Source: a virus (taxonomy: Duplodnaviria > Caudoviricetes). Taken from it: DNA of 32,024 bases. The notes beneath the pieces are model-generated. The model was not told the origin of the DNA. It did no database searches and worked only from the letters and a program-made list of their open reading frames with translations. Position 1 is the stretch's first letter. Each line of letters begins with the position of its first letter. Made by a program: the position numbers and the translations under genes. This document shows positions 1 to 32,024 of this stretch, one piece after another. The stretch is from positions 1 through 32,024 of IMG/VR virus record IMGVR_UViG_3300048577_000472. One strand, written 5' to 3'.

Positions 1-435
1 TTGGTGCACCAAGCCCGACGCTTAAGCCTGCTGGACCTGCCCAGCCTCAACATGGACGCGGATATTGCGACGTCCATGAGCCGGATCGTTGAAAGCTCCG
101 GGCTTTCGCGGGCCGAGGCCGTGGACAGGCTCAACGAAGCGGCGCGGCGTTACGGGGTGCGCCTTTGCGGCGGCAACGCCGAAGCCCTGACCCTGGCGAC
201 CTTTGAAAAATGGCTCAACCCCAACGAATCCAAGAACGTGCCGAGCACCAGGGCCTTGAATGTCTTTTGCCACGTGTTCGGTGCGCCGGAACCGCTGGAC
301 TTGCTGGCTAGGTCTCATGGCCAAGGTTGGCGGGTCATCGACGGCGAGGACGCCCGACTCCTGGAGTGGGCGCGGACGGAGCAGGAAATCAAGCGTCTTC
401 GGGCGCGCAAACGCAAAATCGAGACGGAACTATGA
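1..435 (+). CDS. Phage early regulatory protein (CII-like/HTH); may be 5'-truncated at the window edge
   Basis: ORF from TTG at position 1; FEKWLNP...VPS motif and C-terminal coiled coil; its stop overlaps the next ATG. Confidence 0.6.
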   Translation: MVHQARRLSLLDLPSLNMDADIATSMSRIVESSGLSRAEAVDRLNEAARRYGVRLCGGNAEALTLATFEKWLNPNESKNVPSTRALNVFCHVFGAPEPLDLLARSHGQGWRVIDGEDARLLEWARTEQEIKRLRARKRKIETEL

Positions 436-650
436 AGCGTGAAGGAAGGAAAATCCGCGCCTGGATGGTGGAAAGGGGCATCACGGTGTCCGACGTGGCC
501 CGCCGGGCCGGCATCACCCGGTCCATCGTCTCGGAAACTGTTCACGGACAGCGCAACAACAGGAAGGCCTTGCGGGAGCTGGTGGCCGTGGGGTGTCCGG
601 TGCGGCTGCTTGGTTTGCCGGAAGATATGAAGGGAAAGGAGGCTGCGTGA
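432..650 (+). CDS. Ner/Cro-like HTH DNA-binding protein (72 aa)
   Basis: ATG 432 overlaps the previous stop; MKREGRKIRAWMVERGITVSDVARRAGITRSIVSETVHG is an HTH; position upstream of the transposase matches Mu ner. Confidence 0.75.
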   Translation: MKREGRKIRAWMVERGITVSDVARRAGITRSIVSETVHGQRNNRKALRELVAVGCPVRLLGLPEDMKGKEAA

Positions 651-976
651 TGGAAATGGTCATGGACATGTGGCGAGTGAACCCCAGTCGTTGCGATCCG
701 CCGGAGCAGTGGGTGCCAAGAGAACCTGCGAGCGGGTGTATTGGCTGGCTTGTCGCGCAACCTGTTGATGAAAGGCGTTTCATGGTGGCGGGCGGCCAGT
801 TCGACGTCGATGCGTTCGACGACGCGTCGGTAGGTACGTTTTTTCCTCTTACAAAGGACGGTTACCGCGCTGCTCATGTCGCCCTGCGTCGCAGACTACG
901 GCAACTCGGACACGTCCGCCAGGAAGGGAGCACGGTTGATATTTTTTGCAACGATCCTCTCCCCCTGCCGGCTTGA
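650..976 (+). CDS. Hypothetical phage protein
   Basis: GGAGG SD and GTG/ATG start overlapping the previous TGA; the stop lies just before the first ribozyme. Confidence 0.6.
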   Translation: MEMVMDMWRVNPSRCDPPEQWVPREPASGCIGWLVAQPVDERRFMVAGGQFDVDAFDDASVGTFFPLTKDGYRAAHVALRRRLRQLGHVRQEGSTVDIFCNDPLPLPA

Positions 977-983
977 ACCCCTT

Positions 984-1045
984 TGCGAAACCGCCCCTGC
1001 GGGCGGTCGTCGGACGGTGGCGCGTCCGGCCTGATGAGCAGCCAT
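984..1045 (+). ncRNA. Type II hammerhead ribozyme HH1; predicted cleavage after C1008 (GUC)
   Basis: Stem II TGC984-986/GCA1038-1040; GAAA 987-990; stem III CCGCCC/GGGCGG; GTC 1006-1008; stem I GTCGGACG1009-1016/CGTCCGGC1023-1030; CTGATGA 1031-1037; pseudoknot of loop TGGC1018-1021 with 3' GCCA1041-1044. Confidence 0.93.
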
Positions 1046-1063
1046 AAAAGAGCGGTAGCGACA

Positions 1064-3175
1064 ATGCAAGACACGGTTACAGCAAAAGACATCGCACAAG
1101 CGCTGGGCATATCAGAACGAGCCGTCCAGGCGCGGGCTATGAAAGATTCCTGGCCTTTTGAAGAAGTCTCCTGCCGTGGCGGCAAGCGCCGTCTTTACCC
1201 CTTGGCCTCCCTGCCCGAGGACGTGCGCCAGGCTATTGCCGCCGCCATGCTGGCCGGTGGCCCTGCACCGACAACCCCGCCCGCCGTTGCCGCCTCGTCG
1301 CTTCCAGCCGTGCCCACCAAGGCCCCCGCGCCCCTGGCCAGTCTGACCGCCCACCAGCGTGAAACCGCCCTAGCCCGGCTGGCCTTCGTCCGGGAGATTG
1401 AACGCACAACCCCTTTGATTGGCAAGGAAAAGGCCATCCGCAATCTGCTCAAGGCAGCCGAGGACAACGTGCTGGCTCCCCGGTTGGCGGAATTGATTCG
1501 CGTGGCCAACGACCGCTTCGGTAACGGTCGCGGCCTCTCCCGCCGACGGCTCTACGACTGGTGTTCGCTTTTTACCGAAGGCGGCGAGGCGGCGCTTGCG
1601 CCTCGGCATCCCGGCAAGGTCATGACCGTGCCCGATTGGGCACCGGCCTTTCTGGCCATCTGGCAACAGCCCCAAAAGCCGTCCATCGCCGACGCCTACG
1701 GACAGTTCGCCAAGGCCTACGCGGGGACGCCGCCTTCTATTTTCGCCGTGCGACGGTGGCTGGACAAGATGGCCAAGCCCGACCGCGAGGCCGGCCGCGT
1801 CACGGGCAACGCCCTGCTGCATTTGCGTCCGTACAAACTCCGCAAAACCGACGAGTTGTGGCCCACGGACGTCTATACGGCGGACGGCACCACGTTTGAT
1901 GCGGAAATTCAGCACCCGTTGCACGGCAGCCCCTGGAAACCCGAGGTGACGTTGGTCGTGGACGTGGCCACGCGGCGGGTGGTGGGACTCGCCGTTGGCG
2001 AGGCCGAGTGCGCGGGGACAGTGCTGGATGCGTTGCGCGTGGCCTGCCTGTGGGGTGGAATCCCCTCAATCTTCTACGTGGACAACGGTTCAGGCTACAA
2101 CAATGCCATAACGACAGGTGAAGGGTTTGGCATTCTGACCCGCCTGGATATCGAACTGCGTAACTCCATTCCCGGCCGCCCCCAGGGGAAGGGTCTTATG
2201 GAACGGGCGGTACAGACCATTTGCGTGGCCGCATCCAAGCGTCTCCCGACGTGCAGCCACGCCGATATGGATGAAGACGCGGCCCACAAAATTTTCAAGA
2301 TCACGCGGGCGCAGGTCAAACAGGCCGCAAAACGGCAGTTGCTCCCAACTTTCGAGGAATTCAAGCACGTTCTTTTGGCTCGTGTGGACGAATACAACGC
2401 CAGCCCGCACCGATCCCTGCCTAAAATAATTGACGCCGCCACGGGCAGACGGCGGCACCTCACGCCGGACGAACACTGGCAAAGCTTTCTTAAGCGCGGC
2501 TTCGCGCAACTCCCTGTTCCGGAGGTCTATCGGGACGAACTTTTCATGCCGGGCATCCCGCGAAAGGTTCGCAGCGGCATGGTGCAGCTGTTCAACGGCC
2601 TCTATTACGCCGAGGAATTGGCGGACTTCCACGGCGATTACGTGGAGGTGCGTTACGACATGTGGGACAGCTCGCGCGTTTACTGTTGGACAACAGCGGG
2701 CGAGAAAGTCTGTACGGCTGTACTTGACGGCAATGCCATGGACTACTTCCCCATGACGCAGATCGAGGCCGCCCGAGAGCGGCGGGCCAACGGCAAAGTG
2801 TCACGTCTGGCCAAAAAGCTTGAGGCGGCCATGCCCGGTGCGACGGTGCTCCGACCCGAGGCCACGCCCACCTACACCATGCTTGCCGACTCCGTGATCG
2901 GAGACGGACGCGGGCCGCAAAGCACATCCACGCATGAGATCGTGGTGGAGGCGCTGCCGTCCGCCACTCCGGCGGAGCCTTCCGCCAAGCGGCCCACGTT
3001 CTGGAGCATACAGGATCGTTACAGCTGGCTGATGCACAATCCCGACAGATGGACGGACAAGGACCAGGCGTGGGTGGCCTGGTACGTGGCCAGCAAACAC
3101 TATGATGATCTGCACACGTACTTCGAGGCCCGGTGCATCGCTTGGCCAGGATACGTCCAAAAATCAAAGCAATAA
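1064..3175 (+). CDS. MuA-type DDE transposase
   Basis: N-terminal Mu-type HTH (TAKDIAQALGISERAV); catalytic motifs YTADGT, YVDNGSGY, KGLMER; Mu transposase C-terminal region. ATG 1064 preferred over TTG 983. Confidence 0.95.
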   Translation: MQDTVTAKDIAQALGISERAVQARAMKDSWPFEEVSCRGGKRRLYPLASLPEDVRQAIAAAMLAGGPAPTTPPAVAASSLPAVPTKAPAPLASLTAHQRETALARLAFVREIERTTPLIGKEKAIRNLLKAAEDNVLAPRLAELIRVANDRFGNGRGLSRRRLYDWCSLFTEGGEAALAPRHPGKVMTVPDWAPAFLAIWQQPQKPSIADAYGQFAKAYAGTPPSIFAVRRWLDKMAKPDREAGRVTGNALLHLRPYKLRKTDELWPTDVYTADGTTFDAEIQHPLHGSPWKPEVTLVVDVATRRVVGLAVGEAECAGTVLDALRVACLWGGIPSIFYVDNGSGYNNAITTGEGFGILTRLDIELRNSIPGRPQGKGLMERAVQTICVAASKRLPTCSHADMDEDAAHKIFKITRAQVKQAAKRQLLPTFEEFKHVLLARVDEYNASPHRSLPKIIDAATGRRRHLTPDEHWQSFLKRGFAQLPVPEVYRDELFMPGIPRKVRSGMVQLFNGLYYAEELADFHGDYVEVRYDMWDSSRVYCWTTAGEKVCTAVLDGNAMDYFPMTQIEAARERRANGKVSRLAKKLEAAMPGATVLRPEATPTYTMLADSVIGDGRGPQSTSTHEIVVEALPSATPAEPSAKRPTFWSIQDRYSWLMHNPDRWTDKDQAWVAWYVASKHYDDLHTYFEARCIAWPGYVQKSKQ

Positions 3176-3194
3176 GAACCGACAGGGAGAAAAC

Positions 3195-3941
3195 ATGCGT
3201 AAACAATTCGTGAAAACCGAGAACTACAGCCGCTTTACGGCCGGCATTGCGGCTGTGGAGCAACGCGGCGCGGCCGAGGCCGGCATGCTGCTGGTGCATG
3301 GCGCGCCGGGGTTCGGCAAAAGCCACATTGTCGGACATTGGGCGGCCGAGGCCGGGGCGGTGTTCCTGCGGGCCAATGTCGATTGGACGCCGAAATACTG
3401 TCTGGTGGAGCTGGCCAAGGTGTTGCGCGTGGACCCCTCGGGAACGGCGCAACAACTGTTTTCCCGCCTGCTTGAGCGGGTGGTCGAAACGCAAACGCCC
3501 ATCGTCATCGATGAAGCGGAATTTACCCTGCACCAGGGAGCTGCGGCCCTGGAAAAGGTGCGCGACCTCTCCGACCGGGCCGAAGTGACGGTGGTCTTGA
3601 TCGGCATGGAACGCATTCAGCAATCCATAGCCCGGCACCGTCAGCTGTCCAGCCGGATCGCCCAGGTGGTCGAGTTCGTGCCCTCGACCGTGGCCGACGT
3701 GGAACAGGCCTGCAAGCAACTCTCCGAAGTGGCCATGAGTCCGGCGCTCATGGCCGAGGTACACCGCATTTCGGGTGGCCGCATGCGCGAGGTGCTCAAC
3801 GTGATCGCCACCATCGAACGTCTGGCCCAACTCAACGGCTTGGACACCGTGGCGGTGGCCGACCTGGAAGGCGTGGCACTGGCCCATGACTGGCAAAACC
3901 GCACACCCAAGACGGTCCGCGCGGCCGCCGGGGGGCGTTAG
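3195..3941 (+). CDS. MuB-like AAA+ transposition ATPase
   Basis: Walker A GAPGFGKS, Walker B IVIDE; follows the transposase; SD GGGAG before ATG 3195. Confidence 0.92.
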   Translation: MRKQFVKTENYSRFTAGIAAVEQRGAAEAGMLLVHGAPGFGKSHIVGHWAAEAGAVFLRANVDWTPKYCLVELAKVLRVDPSGTAQQLFSRLLERVVETQTPIVIDEAEFTLHQGAAALEKVRDLSDRAEVTVVLIGMERIQQSIARHRQLSSRIAQVVEFVPSTVADVEQACKQLSEVAMSPALMAEVHRISGGRMREVLNVIATIERLAQLNGLDTVAVADLEGVALAHDWQNRTPKTVRAAAGGR

Positions 3942-4520
3942 ATGGCTTGGTCCGGGCTGGCGATCCTTAACGCCTTGGCGAACGGGCCGAAGCTGACGCG
4001 GCAGATTGCGGCCGGCTTAGGGAAATCTCCCGATGCCGCGCGTCTGTGCCTGGAAACTCTGCGCCGTAAAGGGTTTGTGACCTCGGTCGAGGGCTCGCAC
4101 ACGCTCACCGACAAGGGACGTACGGCCTTGGCCGAAGGCCGAGAAATCACTTCCGGCCCTTGCGGCGGCGCGGCGGCCAGCCGTCGGGAACTGACCCTGC
4201 GGCAAAAGGCTTGGCGCGCCATGGGCATCCGCGACGGCTTTAGCCTGGACGATCTGCTGACCATGCTGTGCGACGGTAGCGAAAAGAGCGCCGCGCGCAA
4301 TCTCAACCGTTACCTATGCGCCTTGGAAGCGGCCGGCTACCTGATGCCCTTGCCCCGGCGGGGCGACGGCGCGGCCAAGCGCTGGCGATTGCGGCGCGAC
4401 CGGGCCACCGGCCCGGAGGCCCCGGCTTTGAACACGCGCACACGGCGGGTGACGGACTGCAACACCGGCCAGGTGTTCGATCTTGACCGCTCCAAAGCGG
4501 AGGTCGCCCATGGCTGCTGA
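3942..4520 (+). CDS. Winged-helix DNA-binding protein (two probable wHTH domains)
   Basis: Coupled to the B stop; HTH-like segments (TRQIAAGLGKSPDAARLCLETLRRKG; ARNLNRYLCALEAAGYL). Confidence 0.7.
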   Translation: MAWSGLAILNALANGPKLTRQIAAGLGKSPDAARLCLETLRRKGFVTSVEGSHTLTDKGRTALAEGREITSGPCGGAAASRRELTLRQKAWRAMGIRDGFSLDDLLTMLCDGSEKSAARNLNRYLCALEAAGYLMPLPRRGDGAAKRWRLRRDRATGPEAPALNTRTRRVTDCNTGQVFDLDRSKAEVAHGC

Positions 4521-4869
4521 TTGGCTTGTCCTGCTTTCTGCCGAGGCGACGCGCACGTCCAAGGCGGCCGTGGGCCGGTCGCTCGGCTACTCCCGCACTG
4601 CCATCAGTCTGGTTTTGGCCGGCAAGTACCCCGGCGGCACGGACAAACTGGCCGCCAAGGTGCTGGCGACGCTTGGCTGGGTGGTCTGCCCGCACCTTGA
4701 GCGCCGGGTAAGTCCGGTCGAATGCGCCGGCAACGCTCGCGAAATGCCCACGTCCAGCCCGGCGGCTTTGCGCTTGTGGCGGGCCTGCCAGACCTGCCCG
4801 CACCGCCCGGCCATCCCCACGAAAACACAACACCGGCCCGAAGCGGTCGGAAAGGAGCATGCGGCATGA
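4510..4869 (+). CDS. HTH protein with C-terminal Cys cluster
   Basis: SD GGAGG; SKAAVGRSLGYSRTAISLVLAGKY HTH; CPH...C...CQTCPH. Confidence 0.75.
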   Translation: MAADWLVLLSAEATRTSKAAVGRSLGYSRTAISLVLAGKYPGGTDKLAAKVLATLGWVVCPHLERRVSPVECAGNAREMPTSSPAALRLWRACQTCPHRPAIPTKTQHRPEAVGKEHAA

Positions 4870-5486
4870 CGACGACGGCAACCCCCATCCCGGACGGCTA
4901 CATGGCCAACGCCAAGGGGCATTTGATTCCTTTGGAGACGGTAAAGCCGGTGGACAAACTGCGCGACGAACTGACGCGCAACATCGTGGCCGCCGCCAAG
5001 GGCGTGCAAACGGCCATGCGGGATTTCCGCGCCAACACCCTGGGCGACATCCAGGCTTTTGCCGACCTCTCGGCCGAGAGGTACGGGGCCAAGCGCGGCG
5101 GCGACAAAGGCAACCTGACCCTGACCAGCTATGACGGTCAATTCAAGGTGCAAGTGCAAATCAGCGAGCGCATGGCCTTTGGCGAACAGTTGCAGGCGGC
5201 CAAGTCGCTTATCGACGAGTGCCTGACCGAATGGGCGCAGGACAGCCGTGAGGAAATCCGGGCCATCATCAACCAGGCATTCGACGTGGACAAGGAAGGC
5301 CGGGTCAACGTCGGCGCGATCCTGGGCTTACGCCGTCTCGACATCCAGGACACGCGCTGGCGCGGAGCCATGGAGGCTATTGCCGACAGTTTGCAGGTGG
5401 TGGGCTCGAAAAAGCTCCTGCGAGTCTACGAACGGCAGGAAGACGGCAGCTATGACCCTATCGCCATGGACATGGCGGCGCTGTGA
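4866..5486 (+). CDS. DUF3164-family early protein of Mu-like phages
   Basis: GYMANAKGHLIP...VDKLRD, GGDKGNLTLTSYDG, AFDVDKEG motifs; ATGA overlap with the previous gene. Confidence 0.85.
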   Translation: MTTTATPIPDGYMANAKGHLIPLETVKPVDKLRDELTRNIVAAAKGVQTAMRDFRANTLGDIQAFADLSAERYGAKRGGDKGNLTLTSYDGQFKVQVQISERMAFGEQLQAAKSLIDECLTEWAQDSREEIRAIINQAFDVDKEGRVNVGAILGLRRLDIQDTRWRGAMEAIADSLQVVGSKKLLRVYERQEDGSYDPIAMDMAAL

Positions 5487-5710
5487 TTTGTGCGGCGCTG
5501 CCTATAGAGGTGCGGCAGGCCTTGGACCGGATGCCGGCCGTCACCACGCCGTGCGCGGCTTCGGCCCTGGCTCTCGGCATCGCCGCCGCCGGCCTGGAGG
5601 TCGGCGCGAACATAGCCAAGGGTCGGGACGACAAGGCGCGCCAAGCGGCGGCTAAGCTCGCTGCCGCCGGCATTCGGCTGGTGGAACATTTGGACCAGGA
5701 CTGGCCGTAG
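5483..5710 (+). CDS. Hypothetical protein
   Basis: GTGA overlap with the upstream stop; fills the operon gap. Confidence 0.5.
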   Translation: MICAALPIEVRQALDRMPAVTTPCAASALALGIAAAGLEVGANIAKGRDDKARQAAAKLAAAGIRLVEHLDQDWP

Positions 5711-5729
5711 GCCGGCCGAGGGAGGCGAT

Positions 5730-6023
5730 ATGGACGGCAAGCGGTTTTACAGGTGCACGGAATGCGGCCACATGGGCGCGGCGCTGTCTGTCGGCGGCGA
5801 GACGCTGTGCGAAAACTGCGCCAGCCGGGGCGTGGTCGCCTGCGACGCGCCAGCGGATCGGCCAGTGCCCATGCGGGTTCTTCGGAGCGCGGAAAAGCAG
5901 GCCTTGACCTGGAAGCGGCAGTCCGAAGCGCTGTCGCGGCTGGTCAATCGGGCCATCAAAAACGGCCATTTGCCCGCGCCCTACGCTGGCGAGGCGCAAC
6001 GGATCATGGCCGGCAGGGCTTAA
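5730..6023 (+). CDS. Zinc-ribbon hypothetical protein
   Basis: SD GGAGG; CTEC...CENC motifs. Confidence 0.7.
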   Translation: MDGKRFYRCTECGHMGAALSVGGETLCENCASRGVVACDAPADRPVPMRVLRSAEKQALTWKRQSEALSRLVNRAIKNGHLPAPYAGEAQRIMAGRA

Positions 6024-6037
6024 AGGGGGAACGGATC

Positions 6038-6448
6038 ATGGGCTACGCCGGCAACTACCATTCAAAATGGCTTGAGCAACAGCTTCAGCATCCCTGTTCA
6101 GCGTTGGGTCGAGAGGTCGCCAACATCCTCGGTTATGTGGGAAATGGTCTTTATAATGCCCCAATAAACATTGAAAAAATCGACTGGACACATCCGTACA
6201 TCATTGAAGTTGTGTGGTCGTCTTACATGGCCAGTTGGGATTTTCCCGTCCTCACACGTCTGTGGGTTGAATGTACTCGGCGTATGGTCAGGGTTTCCGT
6301 GGAGGGCTGCGCACCTCGCAGACTGAAGCTCCAATTTCACAAACGCCATCAACGAAATGGGGATGTGTTTGAACGGCTCCCGGATGTTGAGGAACTTGTG
6401 GCCATGGTGGATGCGGAATGGGGCAGGATAAGGTTCAGCCTACCCTAA
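6038..6448 (+). CDS. Hypothetical accessory protein, lower GC
   Basis: SD GGGGGA, ATG 6038; visibly AT-richer codons; stop TAA abuts HH2. Confidence 0.75.
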   Translation: MGYAGNYHSKWLEQQLQHPCSALGREVANILGYVGNGLYNAPINIEKIDWTHPYIIEVVWSSYMASWDFPVLTRLWVECTRRMVRVSVEGCAPRRLKLQFHKRHQRNGDVFERLPDVEELVAMVDAEWGRIRFSLP

Positions 6449-6510
6449 TGCGAAACCGCCCCCTGCGGGCGGTCGTCGGGACGTGGCGGTCCCGACCTGA
6501 TGAGCAGCCA
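6449..6510 (+). ncRNA. Type II hammerhead ribozyme HH2; predicted cleavage after C6474 (GUC)
   Basis: TGC-GAAA 6449-6455; stem III CCGCCC/GGGCGG; GTC 6472-6474; perfect stem I GTCGGGAC6475-6482/GTCCCGAC6489-6496; CTGATGA 6497-6503; GCA; pseudoknot TGGC/GCCA6507-6510. Confidence 0.94.
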
Positions 6511-6521
6511 AGGAGGTCGAC

Positions 6522-6782
6522 ATGGCTCACGTGTATTGCTGGGCAACCGGGATGTTAGAATTCGGCGAGGCCGTGCCGAATGGGGCACTTTCCCTCGCTG
6601 TCGGCGACATGGAGTCGCTTCGCGATGTCGTCGCCGGGTCGGCAACTCTGGCCTATGACAACGTAACGTGGCTGATCCCTGGGTTTGCTCTGGCCGAGGG
6701 GCATAACGCCCAGATGGATGCCGTGGCCAAGTTTGCTCGCAACCTCCAGGTGTCTCTCGTCTCGGGAGGACGCCATGGCTGA
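6522..6782 (+). CDS. Small early protein resembling Mu-like 'host nuclease inhibitor' annotations
   Basis: SD AGGAGG 6511-6516; YCWATGMLEFG...PNGAL...LIPG motif recalled from Mu-like prophage proteins; function is not established. Confidence 0.65.
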   Translation: MAHVYCWATGMLEFGEAVPNGALSLAVGDMESLRDVVAGSATLAYDNVTWLIPGFALAEGHNAQMDAVAKFARNLQVSLVSGGRHG

Positions 6783-6835
6783 TAGGAGCTTGACAAAGCT
6801 GAATGGCTCCATGGCCATACGGCAAGGAGACAATC

Positions 6836-7027
6836 ATGTATCTGGGTGACGAAGTCGTCAGCCGACGCCACCAGGGGACGATTCGGATCGTGATTGTCTA
6901 CAGCAACGGCGGCGGCGTTGGTCGCAAGATCAAGAAAAACGGCCAGCCAGGCCGGCAGGAGGTTTGCTTACGGCCGGACGACGTTACGGCCGTTAGAATG
7001 TGCCTCCTTGGCTGCCAAGCCCGTTAG
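6836..7027 (+). CDS. Hypothetical protein
   Basis: SD AAGGAG before ATG 6836. Confidence 0.55.
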   Translation: MYLGDEVVSRRHQGTIRIVIVYSNGGGVGRKIKKNGQPGRQEVCLRPDDVTAVRMCLLGCQAR

Positions 7028-7036
7028 GAGAAAACC

Positions 7037-7309
7037 ATGAACAATGCCCAAGGTGTTTACTGGTTGCGCGTCGTGGAGTCGGGGCCGCATCGCTCCACCC
7101 TGGAAGCCGAGGAAGGCTATAAAAACTGCCGCCGGCCGGGGAAGTCCTTTCGGGTCATGCTCGGACCAGATGGCCCGATATGCCCCGGATGTTCCAGGGT
7201 ATGCCGTATTCCGGCCGCTTCCGGTCTGACGCGGGATGACGAGATCGTTATGCAAAAGCACGTCACAATCCGGCAAAAAGGCTCCCCTCGGGTCAAAAAA
7301 GAGGTCTGA
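7037..7309 (+). CDS. Hypothetical protein (CxxC)
   Basis: SD AGGAG; CPGC motif. Confidence 0.65.
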   Translation: MNNAQGVYWLRVVESGPHRSTLEAEEGYKNCRRPGKSFRVMLGPDGPICPGCSRVCRIPAASGLTRDDEIVMQKHVTIRQKGSPRVKKEV

Positions 7310-7312
7310 TCC

Positions 7313-7732
7313 ATGCGTGTAGAATCCCGTAATAGCCTGCTGGCAAAAGTCCATATCGCCAAGAAAGACTTGGGGTTGGATGATGACACCTACCGGGCCA
7401 TGTTGGAGAACCTGACCGGCAAGGAAAGCGCGGCAGCCCTGACCGTGCCCCAGCTAGTGCGGGTGGTGGCCGATCTGCGCGCGCAAGGCTGGAAAGGTCA
7501 AGCCAACAAGTCGGCCACGCGCCGCAAGCCGGTGGTGCGGTCCGAAGCGGCCGGCTACCTGGACAAGATCGAGGCCCTTCTAGCCGAAGCCAAGCGGCCC
7601 TGGTCCTACGCCTCGGGCATCGCCAAACGCATGTACCGGGCGGACAAGCTGGAATGGTTGAATGCGGACCAGATGCGCGGCGTCATGACGGCGCTTATGC
7701 GCGACGCCGTGCGCCACGGGAGGCCGGCATGA
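7313..7732 (+). CDS. gemA: GemA/gp16 (DUF1018) family protein
   Basis: LAKVHIAKKDLGLDDDTYRAMLENLTGKESA signature; directly upstream of the mor-like gene, as in Mu. Confidence 0.9.
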   Translation: MRVESRNSLLAKVHIAKKDLGLDDDTYRAMLENLTGKESAAALTVPQLVRVVADLRAQGWKGQANKSATRRKPVVRSEAAGYLDKIEALLAEAKRPWSYASGIAKRMYRADKLEWLNADQMRGVMTALMRDAVRHGRPA

Positions 7733-8148
7733 GCGACAATAGCCTGCCCGCCTCCGTGGCGGAACTGGTGGACCTGCTCGGCCTGCAAACGGCCATGAAG
7801 CTGGTGCGCGGCCTGGGCGGCACCACGTTTCCCGTGCCCAAGCGGCAGACACCGCTTGGGCAGCGGCGCTACGAAATGCTGGCCGATGTGGTGGGCACGG
7901 AAGCGGCGGACGCACTGGTTGGCTGCTACGGCGGCGGGGAACTCTACGTGCCCCGGTGCGCCGCCGCCTTGCAGGCCGCCCGCGACGCCGAGATCAACGA
8001 GTATTTCGTAACCGAAACCAACAAGGGCCGGTCGTCGGCCGAGGTTGTTTTCCATTTGGCCAGACGTTACAAGCTTTCCGATAGGCGGGTATGGCATATT
8101 CTCAAGACGCTGCCCGTCAAGCCGAATGACCAGTTGCGGTTGTTCTAA
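7729..8148 (+). CDS. mor: Mor/C-family transcription activator
   Basis: LPASVAELVDLLG, YGGGELYVPRC, RDAEI, LARRYKLSDRRVWHIL C-terminal HTH. Confidence 0.9.
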   Translation: MSDNSLPASVAELVDLLGLQTAMKLVRGLGGTTFPVPKRQTPLGQRRYEMLADVVGTEAADALVGCYGGGELYVPRCAAALQAARDAEINEYFVTETNKGRSSAEVVFHLARRYKLSDRRVWHILKTLPVKPNDQLRLF

Positions 8149-8173
8149 GGACCGTTTTTTGGGGGGGTGGAAT

Positions 8174-8503
8174 ATGTCATTTTTTGGGTACGCGATACTT
8201 TTAGGAGCCGCCATAGGTGTCTTTATTGGAGTTTGGCGGTACATCCCATGGTTTGGTCCAATTTGCTCTATTATTCTGATTTCGTTTTTAGGTTATGGGA
8301 TACTTGTTGAAGTTATCGTCAGAACAGCTAACCCAGCCATGTGGTTTCAGATTGTTCCTGCCGCGATCTTTTTTGGTATTGGCGGCCTTGCTTGTCTTTG
8401 GATTAAGCGTGTCCCACAGTATAAGCTCTATGGAGCCATTCTCTTTTTCGGCGCATGCGGAATATGTGGCTTGCTCTTATTAAAAGGCGCGGCAGCCAGT
8501 TAA
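8174..8503 (+). CDS. Low-GC integral membrane protein (about 4 TM helices), moron-like
   Basis: 109 aa, almost entirely hydrophobic; AT-rich relative to its flanks. Confidence 0.75.
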   Translation: MSFFGYAILLGAAIGVFIGVWRYIPWFGPICSIILISFLGYGILVEVIVRTANPAMWFQIVPAAIFFGIGGLACLWIKRVPQYKLYGAILFFGACGICGLLLLKGAAAS

Positions 8504-8511
8504 GCTAGTCC

Positions 8512-8557
8512 CCTGAACCCCTTCACCTATCACCGCCCCCGGTGCGCCGCCTAGTAT
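8512..8557 (+). promoter_or_regulatory. Late promoter 1 (lysis/packaging): activator box CCTGAACCCCTTCACCTATC plus -10 TAGTAT
   Basis: 20-bp box identical to those at 16348 and 27515; TAnnnT exactly 20 nt downstream; no -35. Confidence 0.8.
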
Positions 8558-8583
8558 AGGCGGCGTCCGGGGGCGGTCCTTTT
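8532..8583 (+). terminator. Long GC hairpin with short T-tract overlapping late promoter 1
   Basis: ACCGCCCCCGG8532-8542/CCGGGGGCGGT8567-8577 and CGCCGCCTA8545-8553/TAGGCGGCG8557-8565, followed by CCTTTT. Confidence 0.55.
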
Positions 8584-8615
8584 CCGCCTCCAAACCTCAT
8601 TTACTGGAGGCGAAA

Positions 8616-8963
8616 ATGCTCAACATCCGTTCCCCTCGCATGGTCGTTTGCGGCTTCGTCGCACTGACCCTGCTGGCCCTGGTCGTCTTCCTCTCGCCGC
8701 AGCAAGGGCCGGTGGCCCTGTACAAGCTGTCGTTGGTGCTGGCCGCCGGCTATGCCGGTTACTGGCTCGACCGCTGGGCGTTTCCCTACGCCCGGCCGGA
8801 CAGCTATCTGCAAATCCCAAACTGGCGAAAGGTCATCGCTGGCCAAGAGTCCCTGGCCGACAATCCCGTAGCCGAAGGCCATGCCATCCCCTTTGCGGCC
8901 GCCATGCTGCGCCGGGCCGTGATCATGGGCGCGTGCATGCTGGCCGTGGGCCTGGGGCTGTAG
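8616..8963 (+). CDS. Putative holin (2/3-TM family)
   Basis: SPQQGPVALYKLSLVLAAGYAGYWLDRWAFPYARP and AAAMLRRAVIM...VGLGL motifs; first lysis gene. Confidence 0.85.
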   Translation: MLNIRSPRMVVCGFVALTLLALVVFLSPQQGPVALYKLSLVLAAGYAGYWLDRWAFPYARPDSYLQIPNWRKVIAGQESLADNPVAEGHAIPFAAAMLRRAVIMGACMLAVGLGL

Positions 8964-8965
8964 CC

Positions 8966-9628
8966 ATGCGCCGCCTGGGCAGTTTTCTGTTGGATCGCCT
9001 CGTTGAGCTACTGGTTGCCATCGGGCTTTCCTTATTGCTCATGCCAGCCGGCGCACGCGGTGCTCGGGCCGAAACCATCCCGCCCGAAGCCGCCAAGCAC
9101 CGGGCCGAACTGACCCGGTGCGGCCGTTACGCCTTTGGCCTGGACGCGCCCATCGCCACGCTCGCCGGGCAGGTCCACCAGGAAAGCCGTTGGCGGGCGG
9201 GTGCCGTCTCTCCGGTCGGCGCGCGCGGGCTGGCGCAATTCATGCCCGCCACGTCCGCGTGGATCGCTGACCTTGTGCCCGAACTGGCCGACAACGCGCC
9301 GTTTAATCCCGGCTGGGCCATACGCGCCCTGGCTACCTACGACAAATGGCTATGGGACCGGGTTCACGCCCGCGACGATTGCCAACGCATGGCCATGGCC
9401 CTTGCCGCCTACAACGGCGGCTTGGGCTGGGTGCAACGCGACAAGACCCTGGCCAAGGCGCGCGGCGCGGACCCGTTAACTTGGTTCGAGCAGGTTGAGC
9501 GTTTTAACGCCGGCCGTAGTACCGCCGCCTTCCGGGAAAACCGGGGCTATCCCCGGCGCATCCTGGGAACCCTCGAACCACTCTACATCCGGGCCGGATG
9601 GGGCCAGGGGGTGTGCCATGCCAAGTAA
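8966..9628 (+). CDS. Endolysin, SLT lytic transglycosylase with N-terminal signal/anchor
   Basis: QVHQESRW catalytic Glu, GLAQFMPAT, ALAAYNGGLG. Confidence 0.92.
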   Translation: MRRLGSFLLDRLVELLVAIGLSLLLMPAGARGARAETIPPEAAKHRAELTRCGRYAFGLDAPIATLAGQVHQESRWRAGAVSPVGARGLAQFMPATSAWIADLVPELADNAPFNPGWAIRALATYDKWLWDRVHARDDCQRMAMALAAYNGGLGWVQRDKTLAKARGADPLTWFEQVERFNAGRSTAAFRENRGYPRRILGTLEPLYIRAGWGQGVCHAK

Positions 9629-30911: not shown

Positions 30912-31016
30912 GGAGCAGGAGGGGCGGCTAGACCCCGTCCCACTGGCCCGGTGTGTGACCACCGGTCCACCGGCTTTCGCCGGCTGCTCCCTGCCCACGA
31001 TCTGGCGACCGGGGGT
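30912..31016 (-). ncRNA. Candidate cloverleaf antisense RNA upstream of com
   Basis: Four-way junction 30912-30990 plus a 5' hairpin; minus-strand TTTACA-N17-TAACGC promoter at 31052-31024. Strand is not certain. Confidence 0.5.
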
Positions 31017-31061
31017 GACGGGGGCGTTAGCAGCGGAAGCGCAACCTGTAAAGAGAAGGAA

Positions 31062-31259
31062 ATGCGGGAGATACGGTGTGGATCGTGCGATAGGTTGTTA
31101 GCCAAGGGTGAGGCACTGAACCTCGCCATCAAATGCCCCCGATGCGGGGCCGTAAACATTGTGAGGGCCGCGAGCCCCAACCCAGAAGGCCATGGAGCCT
31201 CCCCCAGGGAGCAACTCTATGGCCAGGCCATACCATCCACCCAAACCAAGCCATTATGA
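31062..31259 (+). CDS. com: Com zinc-finger translational activator
   Basis: EIRCGSCDRLLAK...IKCPRCGAVN; overlaps the mom start, as in Mu. Confidence 0.9.
   Translation: MREIRCGSCDRLLAKGEALNLAIKCPRCGAVNIVRAASPNPEGHGASPREQLYGQAIPSTQTKPL
31188..31224 (+). promoter_or_regulatory. Hairpin sequestering the mom SD and AUG
   Basis: GGCCATGGAG31188-31197/CTCTATGGCC31215-31224 with inner CTCCC/GGGAG. Confidence 0.7.
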
Positions 31260-32024
31260 AGCGCCGACCGGCGACCAGCCGGACTACTTGATAGGTGCAA
31301 CCGGCGTGCAAGGCTTCGGCAAACGCGACCTCTACCTGGCTGCCATTCCGGCGGCCAGGGCGCGGGAAACGATAGTGGCCAAGCATTATTCCAAGCGGGT
31401 AGTCAACAATAGCTACGTGCACCTGGGCGTCTACCACCAGGGACACTTTCGGGCGTGCTCCAGTTTGGGTACGCCCTAAATCCGCACCGGGCGGGCAGCA
31501 TAGTGGAGGGAACCCGTGTCGGCGAATACCTGGAACTCAACCGAATGTGGCTGGACGATGCCTGTCCGCGCAACACCGAGAGCCAGGCGATAAGCTTTGC
31601 CGTGAAATACATCCGCCGGGCCTGCCCGACGGTAGCGTGGATTCAGAGCTTTGCCGACGAACGGTGCGGCGGGCTGGGGGTGGTCTATCAGGCGAGCAAT
31701 TTTCAGTTTTGCGGCAGCCACCTGACCACCTTCTGGCACCTGGACGGGGACTGGTATCATGAAATGATGCGGACGGCCCACCGAGGAGGGGGGAGACGCG
31801 GGGAGCACCTCAGACAGAACCTTCAGCGAGCCACAAGGCATCAATTCCGGCAGTTCCGCTACGTGTTATTCTTGAAACAATCCTGGCGGAAACGACTGTG
31901 CCTAACGGTCCTGCCGAACCCCAAACGGCAAGCAGCGGGACCAAGTGCCAACGACGGCGCAAATCAGTGCCAAATCGCGCGCCGCCTTACTAATAACCAT
32001 TCCCCAGAAATCCCAGGCCAATAG
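31219..32024 (+). pseudogene. mom: Mom adenine-modification enzyme, split by a 1-nt frameshift at about 31451-31453
   Basis: 5' frame HYSKRVVNNSYVHLGV continues in another frame as VLQFGYALNP...LELNRMWL...RNTESQAIS...QSFADERCG...GVVYQASNF, matching Mu Mom motifs. Confidence 0.88.
31944..31991 (+). repeat. Probable right-end transposase-binding repeats
   Basis: AGTGCCAA at 31944 and 31966 (22-bp period), just after the Mom-homologous region ends. Confidence 0.5.

Follow-up and report, generated by a model that had tools for sequence, protein, structure and literature searches.

Type II hammerhead ribozymes with a pseudoknot are known from prophages, in which tandem copies flank varying genes (Perreault et al., 2011; PMC3088659). 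Cleavage of such tandem copies has been observed both in vitro and in E. coli, and a contribution to the processing of long phage transcripts has been proposed (PMC3088659). The strongest ribozyme-gene associations involve Mu-like phage genes, with the biological reason stated to be unknown in a later account that cites two earlier papers (PMC10085705). What purpose self-cleaving ribozymes serve in Mu-like phages is likewise given as unknown in passages of PMC10085705 and PMC6765202, the latter repeating the idea that the cleavage fragments differ in stability or translation. Another system that bears comparison is that of the PeSLs of T4-type phages, promoter-terminator units that were shown to recombine and to form DNA mini-circles (PMC2839356). 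The ribozyme class, its pseudoknot, the tandem prophage copies and the association with Mu-like phages are already published. In synthetic ribozyme insulators such as RiboJ, a self-cleaving RNA is placed just upstream of the ribosome-binding site and fixes the 5' end of the message. Searches, mostly of papers open without subscription and of main texts, turned up no paper on hammerheads located immediately 5' of a Mu transposase or on the distance from stop codon to Shine-Dalgarno (SD) sequence.

The DNA analyzed here (the window) is a stretch of 32,024 nt that represents a near-complete Mu-like prophage. It carries a regulator, a Cro/Ner-like gene, MuA, MuB, DUF3164, gemA and mor, followed by lysis, head, tail, com and mom-like genes, and the named relatives of its transposase come from Desulfovibrionaceae. 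Two hammerheads, termed copy 1 and copy 2, lie among the following features:

1-435, plus strand: transcriptional regulator (phrog_2345), open at the 5' end of the window
432-650, plus strand: Cro/Ner-like helix-turn-helix (HTH) gene, labeled ner from its position and HTH matches
650-976, plus strand: orphan accessory open reading frame (ORF) of 108 aa, its ATG overlapping the ner stop, within a 413-nt insert
984-1044, plus strand: type II hammerhead ribozyme copy 1, before the transposase (Rfam match 983-1047)
1064-3175, plus strand: MuA-like transposase, A (phrog_310, E 5e-145; PF09299), with relatives starting at the same MQD
3195-3941, plus strand: MuB-like AAA transposition protein, B, by family matches
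6038-6448, plus strand: accessory ORF with a GC content of 51% (64% for the window), inserted between the 5730-6023 gene and copy 2
6448-6513, plus strand: type II hammerhead copy 2, upstream of gemA (Rfam 75.3 bits), predicted cut after C6474
6522-6782, plus strand: phrog_1518 gene ('host nuclease inhibitor'), by family match
7313-7732, plus strand: gemA, by family match
7729-8148, plus strand: mor, by family match

No RNA run was found to contain the copy 1 region, three DNA runs cover it in pieces only, and positions 560-1400 gave no match among GenBank phages. For the orphan ORF at 650-976, three homologues with 62-86% identity were found; it has no PHROG or Pfam family and no fold match, and it was not found in viral contigs, metagenome contigs, 401 genomes of the order and the fetched loci up to L307. 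A likeness of this ORF to reverse transcriptases (Atlas) was discarded, as it consisted of sub-threshold rows and a low-confidence model. Longer starts for A, namely an in-frame TTG at 983 and an ATG at 1034 inside CUGAUGA, were rejected: this frame runs into a stop codon in one related prophage (L293) and is shifted in another (L232), and relatives start at MQD. Elsewhere in the window, an AT-rich segment after mor (8150-8580) contains a possible small membrane-protein gene and then a GC-rich inverted repeat before the lysis genes, and the right end (30951-32024) holds com-like and mom-like DNA modification genes.

Copy 1 is a well-formed type II hammerhead. It matches the Rfam model RF02276 (Hammerhead_II) at 983-1047 with 59.8 bits (cut-off 37; E 3.7e-10; model positions 1-66) and has an intact core and three stems, which bears out the preliminary description of a complete hammerhead directly upstream of the transposase, for which a search with this model had been proposed as a check. 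Its elements are arranged as follows:

990-1007, plus strand: stem III hairpin (990-996/1001-1007) with a loop of 4 nt, which would form the 3' end of the upstream fragment
1008-1009, plus strand: predicted cleavage site after C1008 of the GUC at 1006-1008, by hammerhead numbering on the Rfam alignment
1009-1030, plus strand: stem I hairpin (1009-1016/1023-1030) with a loop of 6 nt, which would form the 5' end of the A-B fragment
1018-1044, plus strand: pseudoknot of loop I UGGC (1018-1021) with the tail GCCA (1041-1044), from the sequence
1031-1037, plus strand: core CUGAUGA, the second core strand being GAAA at 987-990
1050-1056, plus strand: weak SD-like GAGCGGT, 7 nt 5' of the transposase ATG

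Stem II consists of 984-986 paired with 1038-1040 (3 bp, open end), and the minimum free energy (MFE) fold of 984-1044 together with covariation gives a topology in which loops close stems I and III and stem II is open. The characteristic G10.1-C11.1 and A15.1-U16.1 pairs are present as C986-G1038 and A990-U1007. Calculated with a model that omits pseudoknots, the MFE structure of 984-1044 alone is exactly the three-stem fold, and within a 184-nt context the pair probabilities reach 0.81-1.0 for stems I and III and about 0.39 for stem II; the z-score for the fold of the whole segment, -0.31, is uninformative. The core-only motif occurs twice in the window, compared with a mean of 0.13 and a maximum of 1 in 100 shuffles. 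In an alignment of 20 hand-picked and mutually related copies, 97.7% of cells are paired (26-45% in slid controls), and changes on both sides are seen at 10 of 22 pairs, a count reached in 0 of 500 shuffles that is not a probability because the copies are related. This covariation falls in stems I and III. The 4-bp UGGC/GCCA complement, which had been noted at the outset as a loop I/3'-tail pseudoknot, is present and 100% paired in the 20 copies; its variation is one-sided only and amounts to conservation without compensatory support. Core columns are invariant across copies except for the hammerhead variable position. The cut is presumably after C1008, where established hammerhead numbering places it, and the predicted leader (1009-1063) measures 55 nt; both this cut and the structured 5'-OH leader anticipated for it follow from the anatomy. 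On the flanks, the upstream stop TGA occupies 974-976 and the transposase ATG lies at 1064, and the GAGCGGT between ribozyme and start fails a 4-nt SD test, its GCGGT part being native to the ribozyme-free junction. Like the hammerheads of PMC3088659, as far as its main text describes them, copy 1 combines this topology, core, short stem II and pseudoknot with the occurrence of several prophage copies and no constant gene identity. Its position between ner and A sets it apart from the main text of that paper, in which the word transposase has 0 occurrences and whose supplements may list such contexts.

Copy 2 was detected by the same Rfam scan and was not among the features listed in the preliminary description. 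It begins at the stop of the upstream ORF, and an AGGAGG (6511-6516) lies directly 3' of its pseudoknot strand. A downstream ribozyme in this pre-gemA position is found in 25 of the 27 related prophages with at least 4.9 kb of downstream sequence (12/12, 10/12 with one inverted, and 3/3 extended loci). In relatives, copy 2 stands out as an isolated similar stretch with an inserted block on either side (6024-6443 and 6516-7312). The block at 2495-3367 of L301, comprising a gene like that at 5730, a hammerhead and a phrog_1518-like gene, is inverted relative to the rest of that prophage. Two further hammerheads (L149 and L150 in G001) lie in regions with no match to the early proteins of the window.

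Before A, the ribozyme is an optional state and occupies an uncommon but recurring position. Relatives gathered by transposase similarity, together with L151, comprised 58 loci, of which 51 are distinct by a 100-nt key and some of these still near-identical (L153 and L293 are one locus, as are L155 and L295). A ribozyme within 900 nt upstream of A is present in two of the 51 (L153/L293 and L301). Since the pattern search missed two Rfam-detected copies (L299, L307), absence upstream of A was based on Rfam scans or on gaps too short for 61 nt. A conserved cis-regulator of A would be present across related phages, and presence in 2/51 does not show that distribution. Among the 46 loci with a ner match, 35 have an estimated ner-A gap of at most 55 nt, two have the ribozyme and nine have ribozyme-free inserts of 296-1051 nt. 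Five relatives with a ner 73-88% identical (L154, L158, L159, L160, L162) show 12-13 nt between the ner stop and the A start. In the window, this interval holds the 413-nt insert, made up of the orphan ORF and the ribozyme at its end, after which the native sequence from GCGGT to the ATG resumes. Similarity of the window to L293 ends at 635 and returns at 984, the first base of the ribozyme.

Two additional prophages, L085 and L232, came from pattern scans and are therefore outside the 51. L085 has ner, a phrog_1518-like gene, the ribozyme, other ORFs and a different A, and L232 starts as L085 does and contains two ribozymes, the second directly before A, so that phrog_1518 homologues lie between ner and the pre-A ribozyme in both. 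A ribozyme between ner and A thus recurs in four other prophages (L293, L301, L085, L232) with three kinds of A, and in L293 and L301 it stands before A with no accessory gene. The window, L155/L295, L085 and L232 share the overlap of ner stop and ATG and then continue with different genes, which identifies the ner-A junction as a slot for accessory genes. Among the 110 loci from targeted scans for a ribozyme followed by the start of A, tblastn with two A queries found an A-like gene after the ribozyme only in L232. Against the published Mu-like cases in the passages of PMC10085705, the likeness consists in a Mu-like prophage with one ribozyme near another; what goes beyond them is the usual position before gemA (25/27) with a rare second one before A (2/51), within one host family.

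Other features of this junction were also recorded. L085 (3203-3480) and L155 (about 1070-1500) have a similar inverted repeat just upstream of A, overlapping the start region of a small antisense ORF (63 aa in L085), whose SD may be sequestered. The transposases of L085 (3497-5722), L232, L296 and L301 are close to the window A at the N-terminus and 28-38% identical overall, with 66% identity over the first 59 residues in L085, suggesting that the N-terminal A domain may be exchanged together with the regulator genes.

Hammerheads in the sampled phage contigs fill gene junctions. A scan of viral contigs for the core pattern gave at least 133 loci from 5 of 64 parts, with about 1600 stretches estimated in all. 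Structural filtering, deduplication and a flank requirement left 154 ribozymes, spread over 94 contigs, among the matches listed, and junctions were scored for one ribozyme per contig with mechanical ORF calls and an upstream ORF of at least 40 aa. Of the 94 contigs, again among the matches listed, 64 have a stop codon no more than 10 nt upstream of the ribozyme, 62 have an SD and a start in the 35 nt that follow it, and 42 have both. The corresponding figures are 8, 3 and 1 of 94 for the antisense control and 7.0%, 12.5% and 1.5% for 4700 random positions on the same strand. Compact phage operons alone could produce the same tight spacing, and proximity to stop and start is therefore no proof of coupling. 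When the 18 ribozymes of the L093 array and the 12 without a callable ORF are subtracted from the 154, 124 downstream ORFs remain, none of which, among the matches listed, has a PHROG transposase match (0/124; 57/124 have no family); since those from short loci end at about 95 aa, the N-terminus of a transposase could be missed. In the L093 array, 18 validated copies (20 pattern matches) lie within about 5.5 kb (about 3000-8500, minus strand), nearly one hammerhead per gap between small genes and most of them followed by the same SD motif.

The predicted cut within 984-1044 would split the early transcript, and its role is probably that of optional punctuation at an accessory-gene junction and not of a dedicated transposase switch, the former being the likelier because most related prophages have no ribozyme before A. 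Read-through of the early operon is inferred from the overlapping stop and start codons at 432-435 and 648-652, and neither a terminator-like site near the ribozyme nor a plus-strand promoter in 1-9000 was found. Stem III was also considered as a terminator and rejected, as it has no T run and no terminator is predicted there. L085 has a divergently oriented, repressor-like ORF 5' of the regulator, in a region that falls outside the window. During transcription, stems III and I would fold as local hairpins, after which the stem II of 2-3 bp and the pseudoknot would close the core and the RNA would be cut after C1008. The regulator, ner and the orphan gene would then be on an upstream piece that stem III closes at its 3' end, where it would bear a cyclic phosphate; the A-B piece would have a 5'-OH terminus, located where the stem I hairpin begins. 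Decay and translation of each piece would become separate, and initiation at A would be freed from ribosomes ending ner 12-13 nt upstream, on which it may depend in ribozyme-free relatives. A modest shift in transposase output would be a likely side effect. RiboJ offers a parallel, from which the window ribozyme differs in being natural, of type II and located between genes inside an operon.

In the preliminary description, cleavage was taken to part the regulator genes from an A-B mRNA. A predicted cut upstream of A does stand, but the gene directly upstream is the orphan ORF of the insert; similarly, the predicted 5' end of the A-B product at 1009 holds, but the piece is also bounded by the second ribozyme, 5,466 nt downstream (1009-6474), so that the A-B piece would be delimited on both sides. 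The further suggestion that copy 1 may affect stability or translation of the transposase mRNA is plausible. The direction of such an effect may depend on the host nucleases. RNase E prefers 5'-monophosphate ends and RNase J degrades the 5'-OH product of glmS; protection has been argued both for 5'-OH ends and for 3'-end hairpins. RNase J, RNase E/G and RtcB are each found in 5/5 related host genomes, and RNase Y is above the cut-off in 3/5. As all five encode both RNase E/G and RNase J, a 5'-OH could stabilize or destabilize the message. Structure in the 5' UTR protects mRNA in E. coli (PMC4033574), a protection that may fail against RNase J.

Of the alternatives, the one that survives best, although it is unlikely, is that copy 1 is kept specifically to tune the transposase, so that the cut would set stability or translation of the A-B message and hence the rate of replicative transposition. 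The ribozyme precedes A in five prophages with three A types, and its retention in L293 and L301 without an accessory gene fits selection on the A leader and argues against pure hitch-hiking, which is why this explanation keeps some weight. The left junction of L293, where the end of ner is changed and shortened, is colinear with the window up to the orphan ATG, a pattern expected if only the gene were missing and the ribozyme had stayed. Four double changes, all of which preserve pairing, distinguish stem I of L293 from that of the window. These differences nevertheless match the downstream copy of L293 itself, and need not reflect selection before A; the other five of the six pre-A copies (window, L085, both in L232, L301) have identical stem I sequences, and this sequence recurs in the downstream copies of L003 and L012. 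Ribozyme-bearing A leaders are predicted to be somewhat more open (opening energy 6.0-6.4 kcal/mol) than native junctions (7.0-10.7 kcal/mol), in a comparison of two with five loci, whereas the cleaved and uncleaved forms of the window are nearly equal (6.26 and 6.43 kcal/mol in a model without pseudoknot). A cleavage-dependent release of the A ribosome-binding site was rejected on these nearly unchanged energies, within the same model. In addition, no ligand-binding or switching element is visible, and 49 of 51 related loci, close relatives included, have no ribozyme at this position.

It is improbable that the main role lies at the DNA level, where the 60-nt repeat would serve as a recombination anchor for gene swaps and overwriting of copies in the manner of PeSLs, cleavage only freeing the incoming genes. 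The resemblance to the PeSL cassettes as presented in PMC2839356 lies in short repeated regulatory elements amid accessory genes that vary, and in indels whose boundaries coincide with the element; the element in the window is instead a ribozyme, recombination is here only suggested, and neither window copy shows a promoter-like or a terminator-like site, whereas a PeSL is defined by a sigma70 promoter and a terminator stem-loop. As to recombination between copies, the other PeSL property, boundaries at ribozyme edges and one identical pair were found, with boundaries elsewhere too. Such edges occur at 984 against L293 and around the similar stretch at 6444-6515, which unrelated blocks flank in comparisons with L003, L010, L294 and L295, and a contig of run X2 joins 6515 to 7313 (gemA) with 7 other letters, which represents an empty allele. 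The identical pair is that of L293, where the copies at 6786-6851 and 1753-1818 equal each other over 62 nt, the two being direct repeats that flank A and B, while the A-side tail resembles those of the window and L232. The L093 array, with nearly one copy per small gene, points the same way. However, boundaries are also seen at ordinary junctions (about 2890, 5486, 6013 and 7313), nine of 46 loci have ner-A inserts free of a ribozyme, L293 is a single case that could be an independent duplication, and recombination alone would not need the conserved catalytic core and pairing.

Very improbable is the excision by the two ribozymes of a 5,466-nt RNA, from A through the 6038 gene, with its ends joined to a circle by a reconstituted core or by RtcB: the geometry allows it and RtcB is encoded in the hosts, but most relatives carry the downstream copy only, nothing but a 3-bp stem II would keep the two ends together, and for tandem prophage hammerheads the main text of PMC3088659 reports that no spliced or circular products were detected. 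Just as improbable is a neutral passenger that arrived with the insert and whose cleavage, if any, is without consequence, since the absence of the ribozyme at ner-A in most relatives is countered by the perfect core and pairing, by an intact ribozyme in all five prophages that have it before A and by the finding of no decayed copy when 13 loci were searched with E values up to 1.

A bolder and less likely reading is one in which phage type II hammerheads are both RNA insulators and DNA recombination anchors and, in some Mu-like lineages, were captured at ner-A and kept after gene loss to reset transposase output. As insulators, they would leave both neighbors hairpin-ended after the cut and the downstream gene with a fixed leader and its own SD; as anchors, they would be the DNA repeats through which accessory genes swap and copies get overwritten.

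The analysis of the window adds a measured stop-ribozyme-SD pattern with controls, and a natural comparison in which the same regulator-ner-A layout is found with ribozyme and gene (window), with the ribozyme alone (L293, L301), with a gene alone (L155) and with neither (L294, L158). The locus itself does not explain the presence of ribozymes in Mu-like phages. Were transposase output altered by the ribozyme, this would be a phage tuning its replication enzyme by a ribozyme. If the reading as both insulator and anchor is true, the near-matched alleles with and without the ribozyme (L293 and L294) would allow a direct test of why Mu-like phages carry ribozymes.
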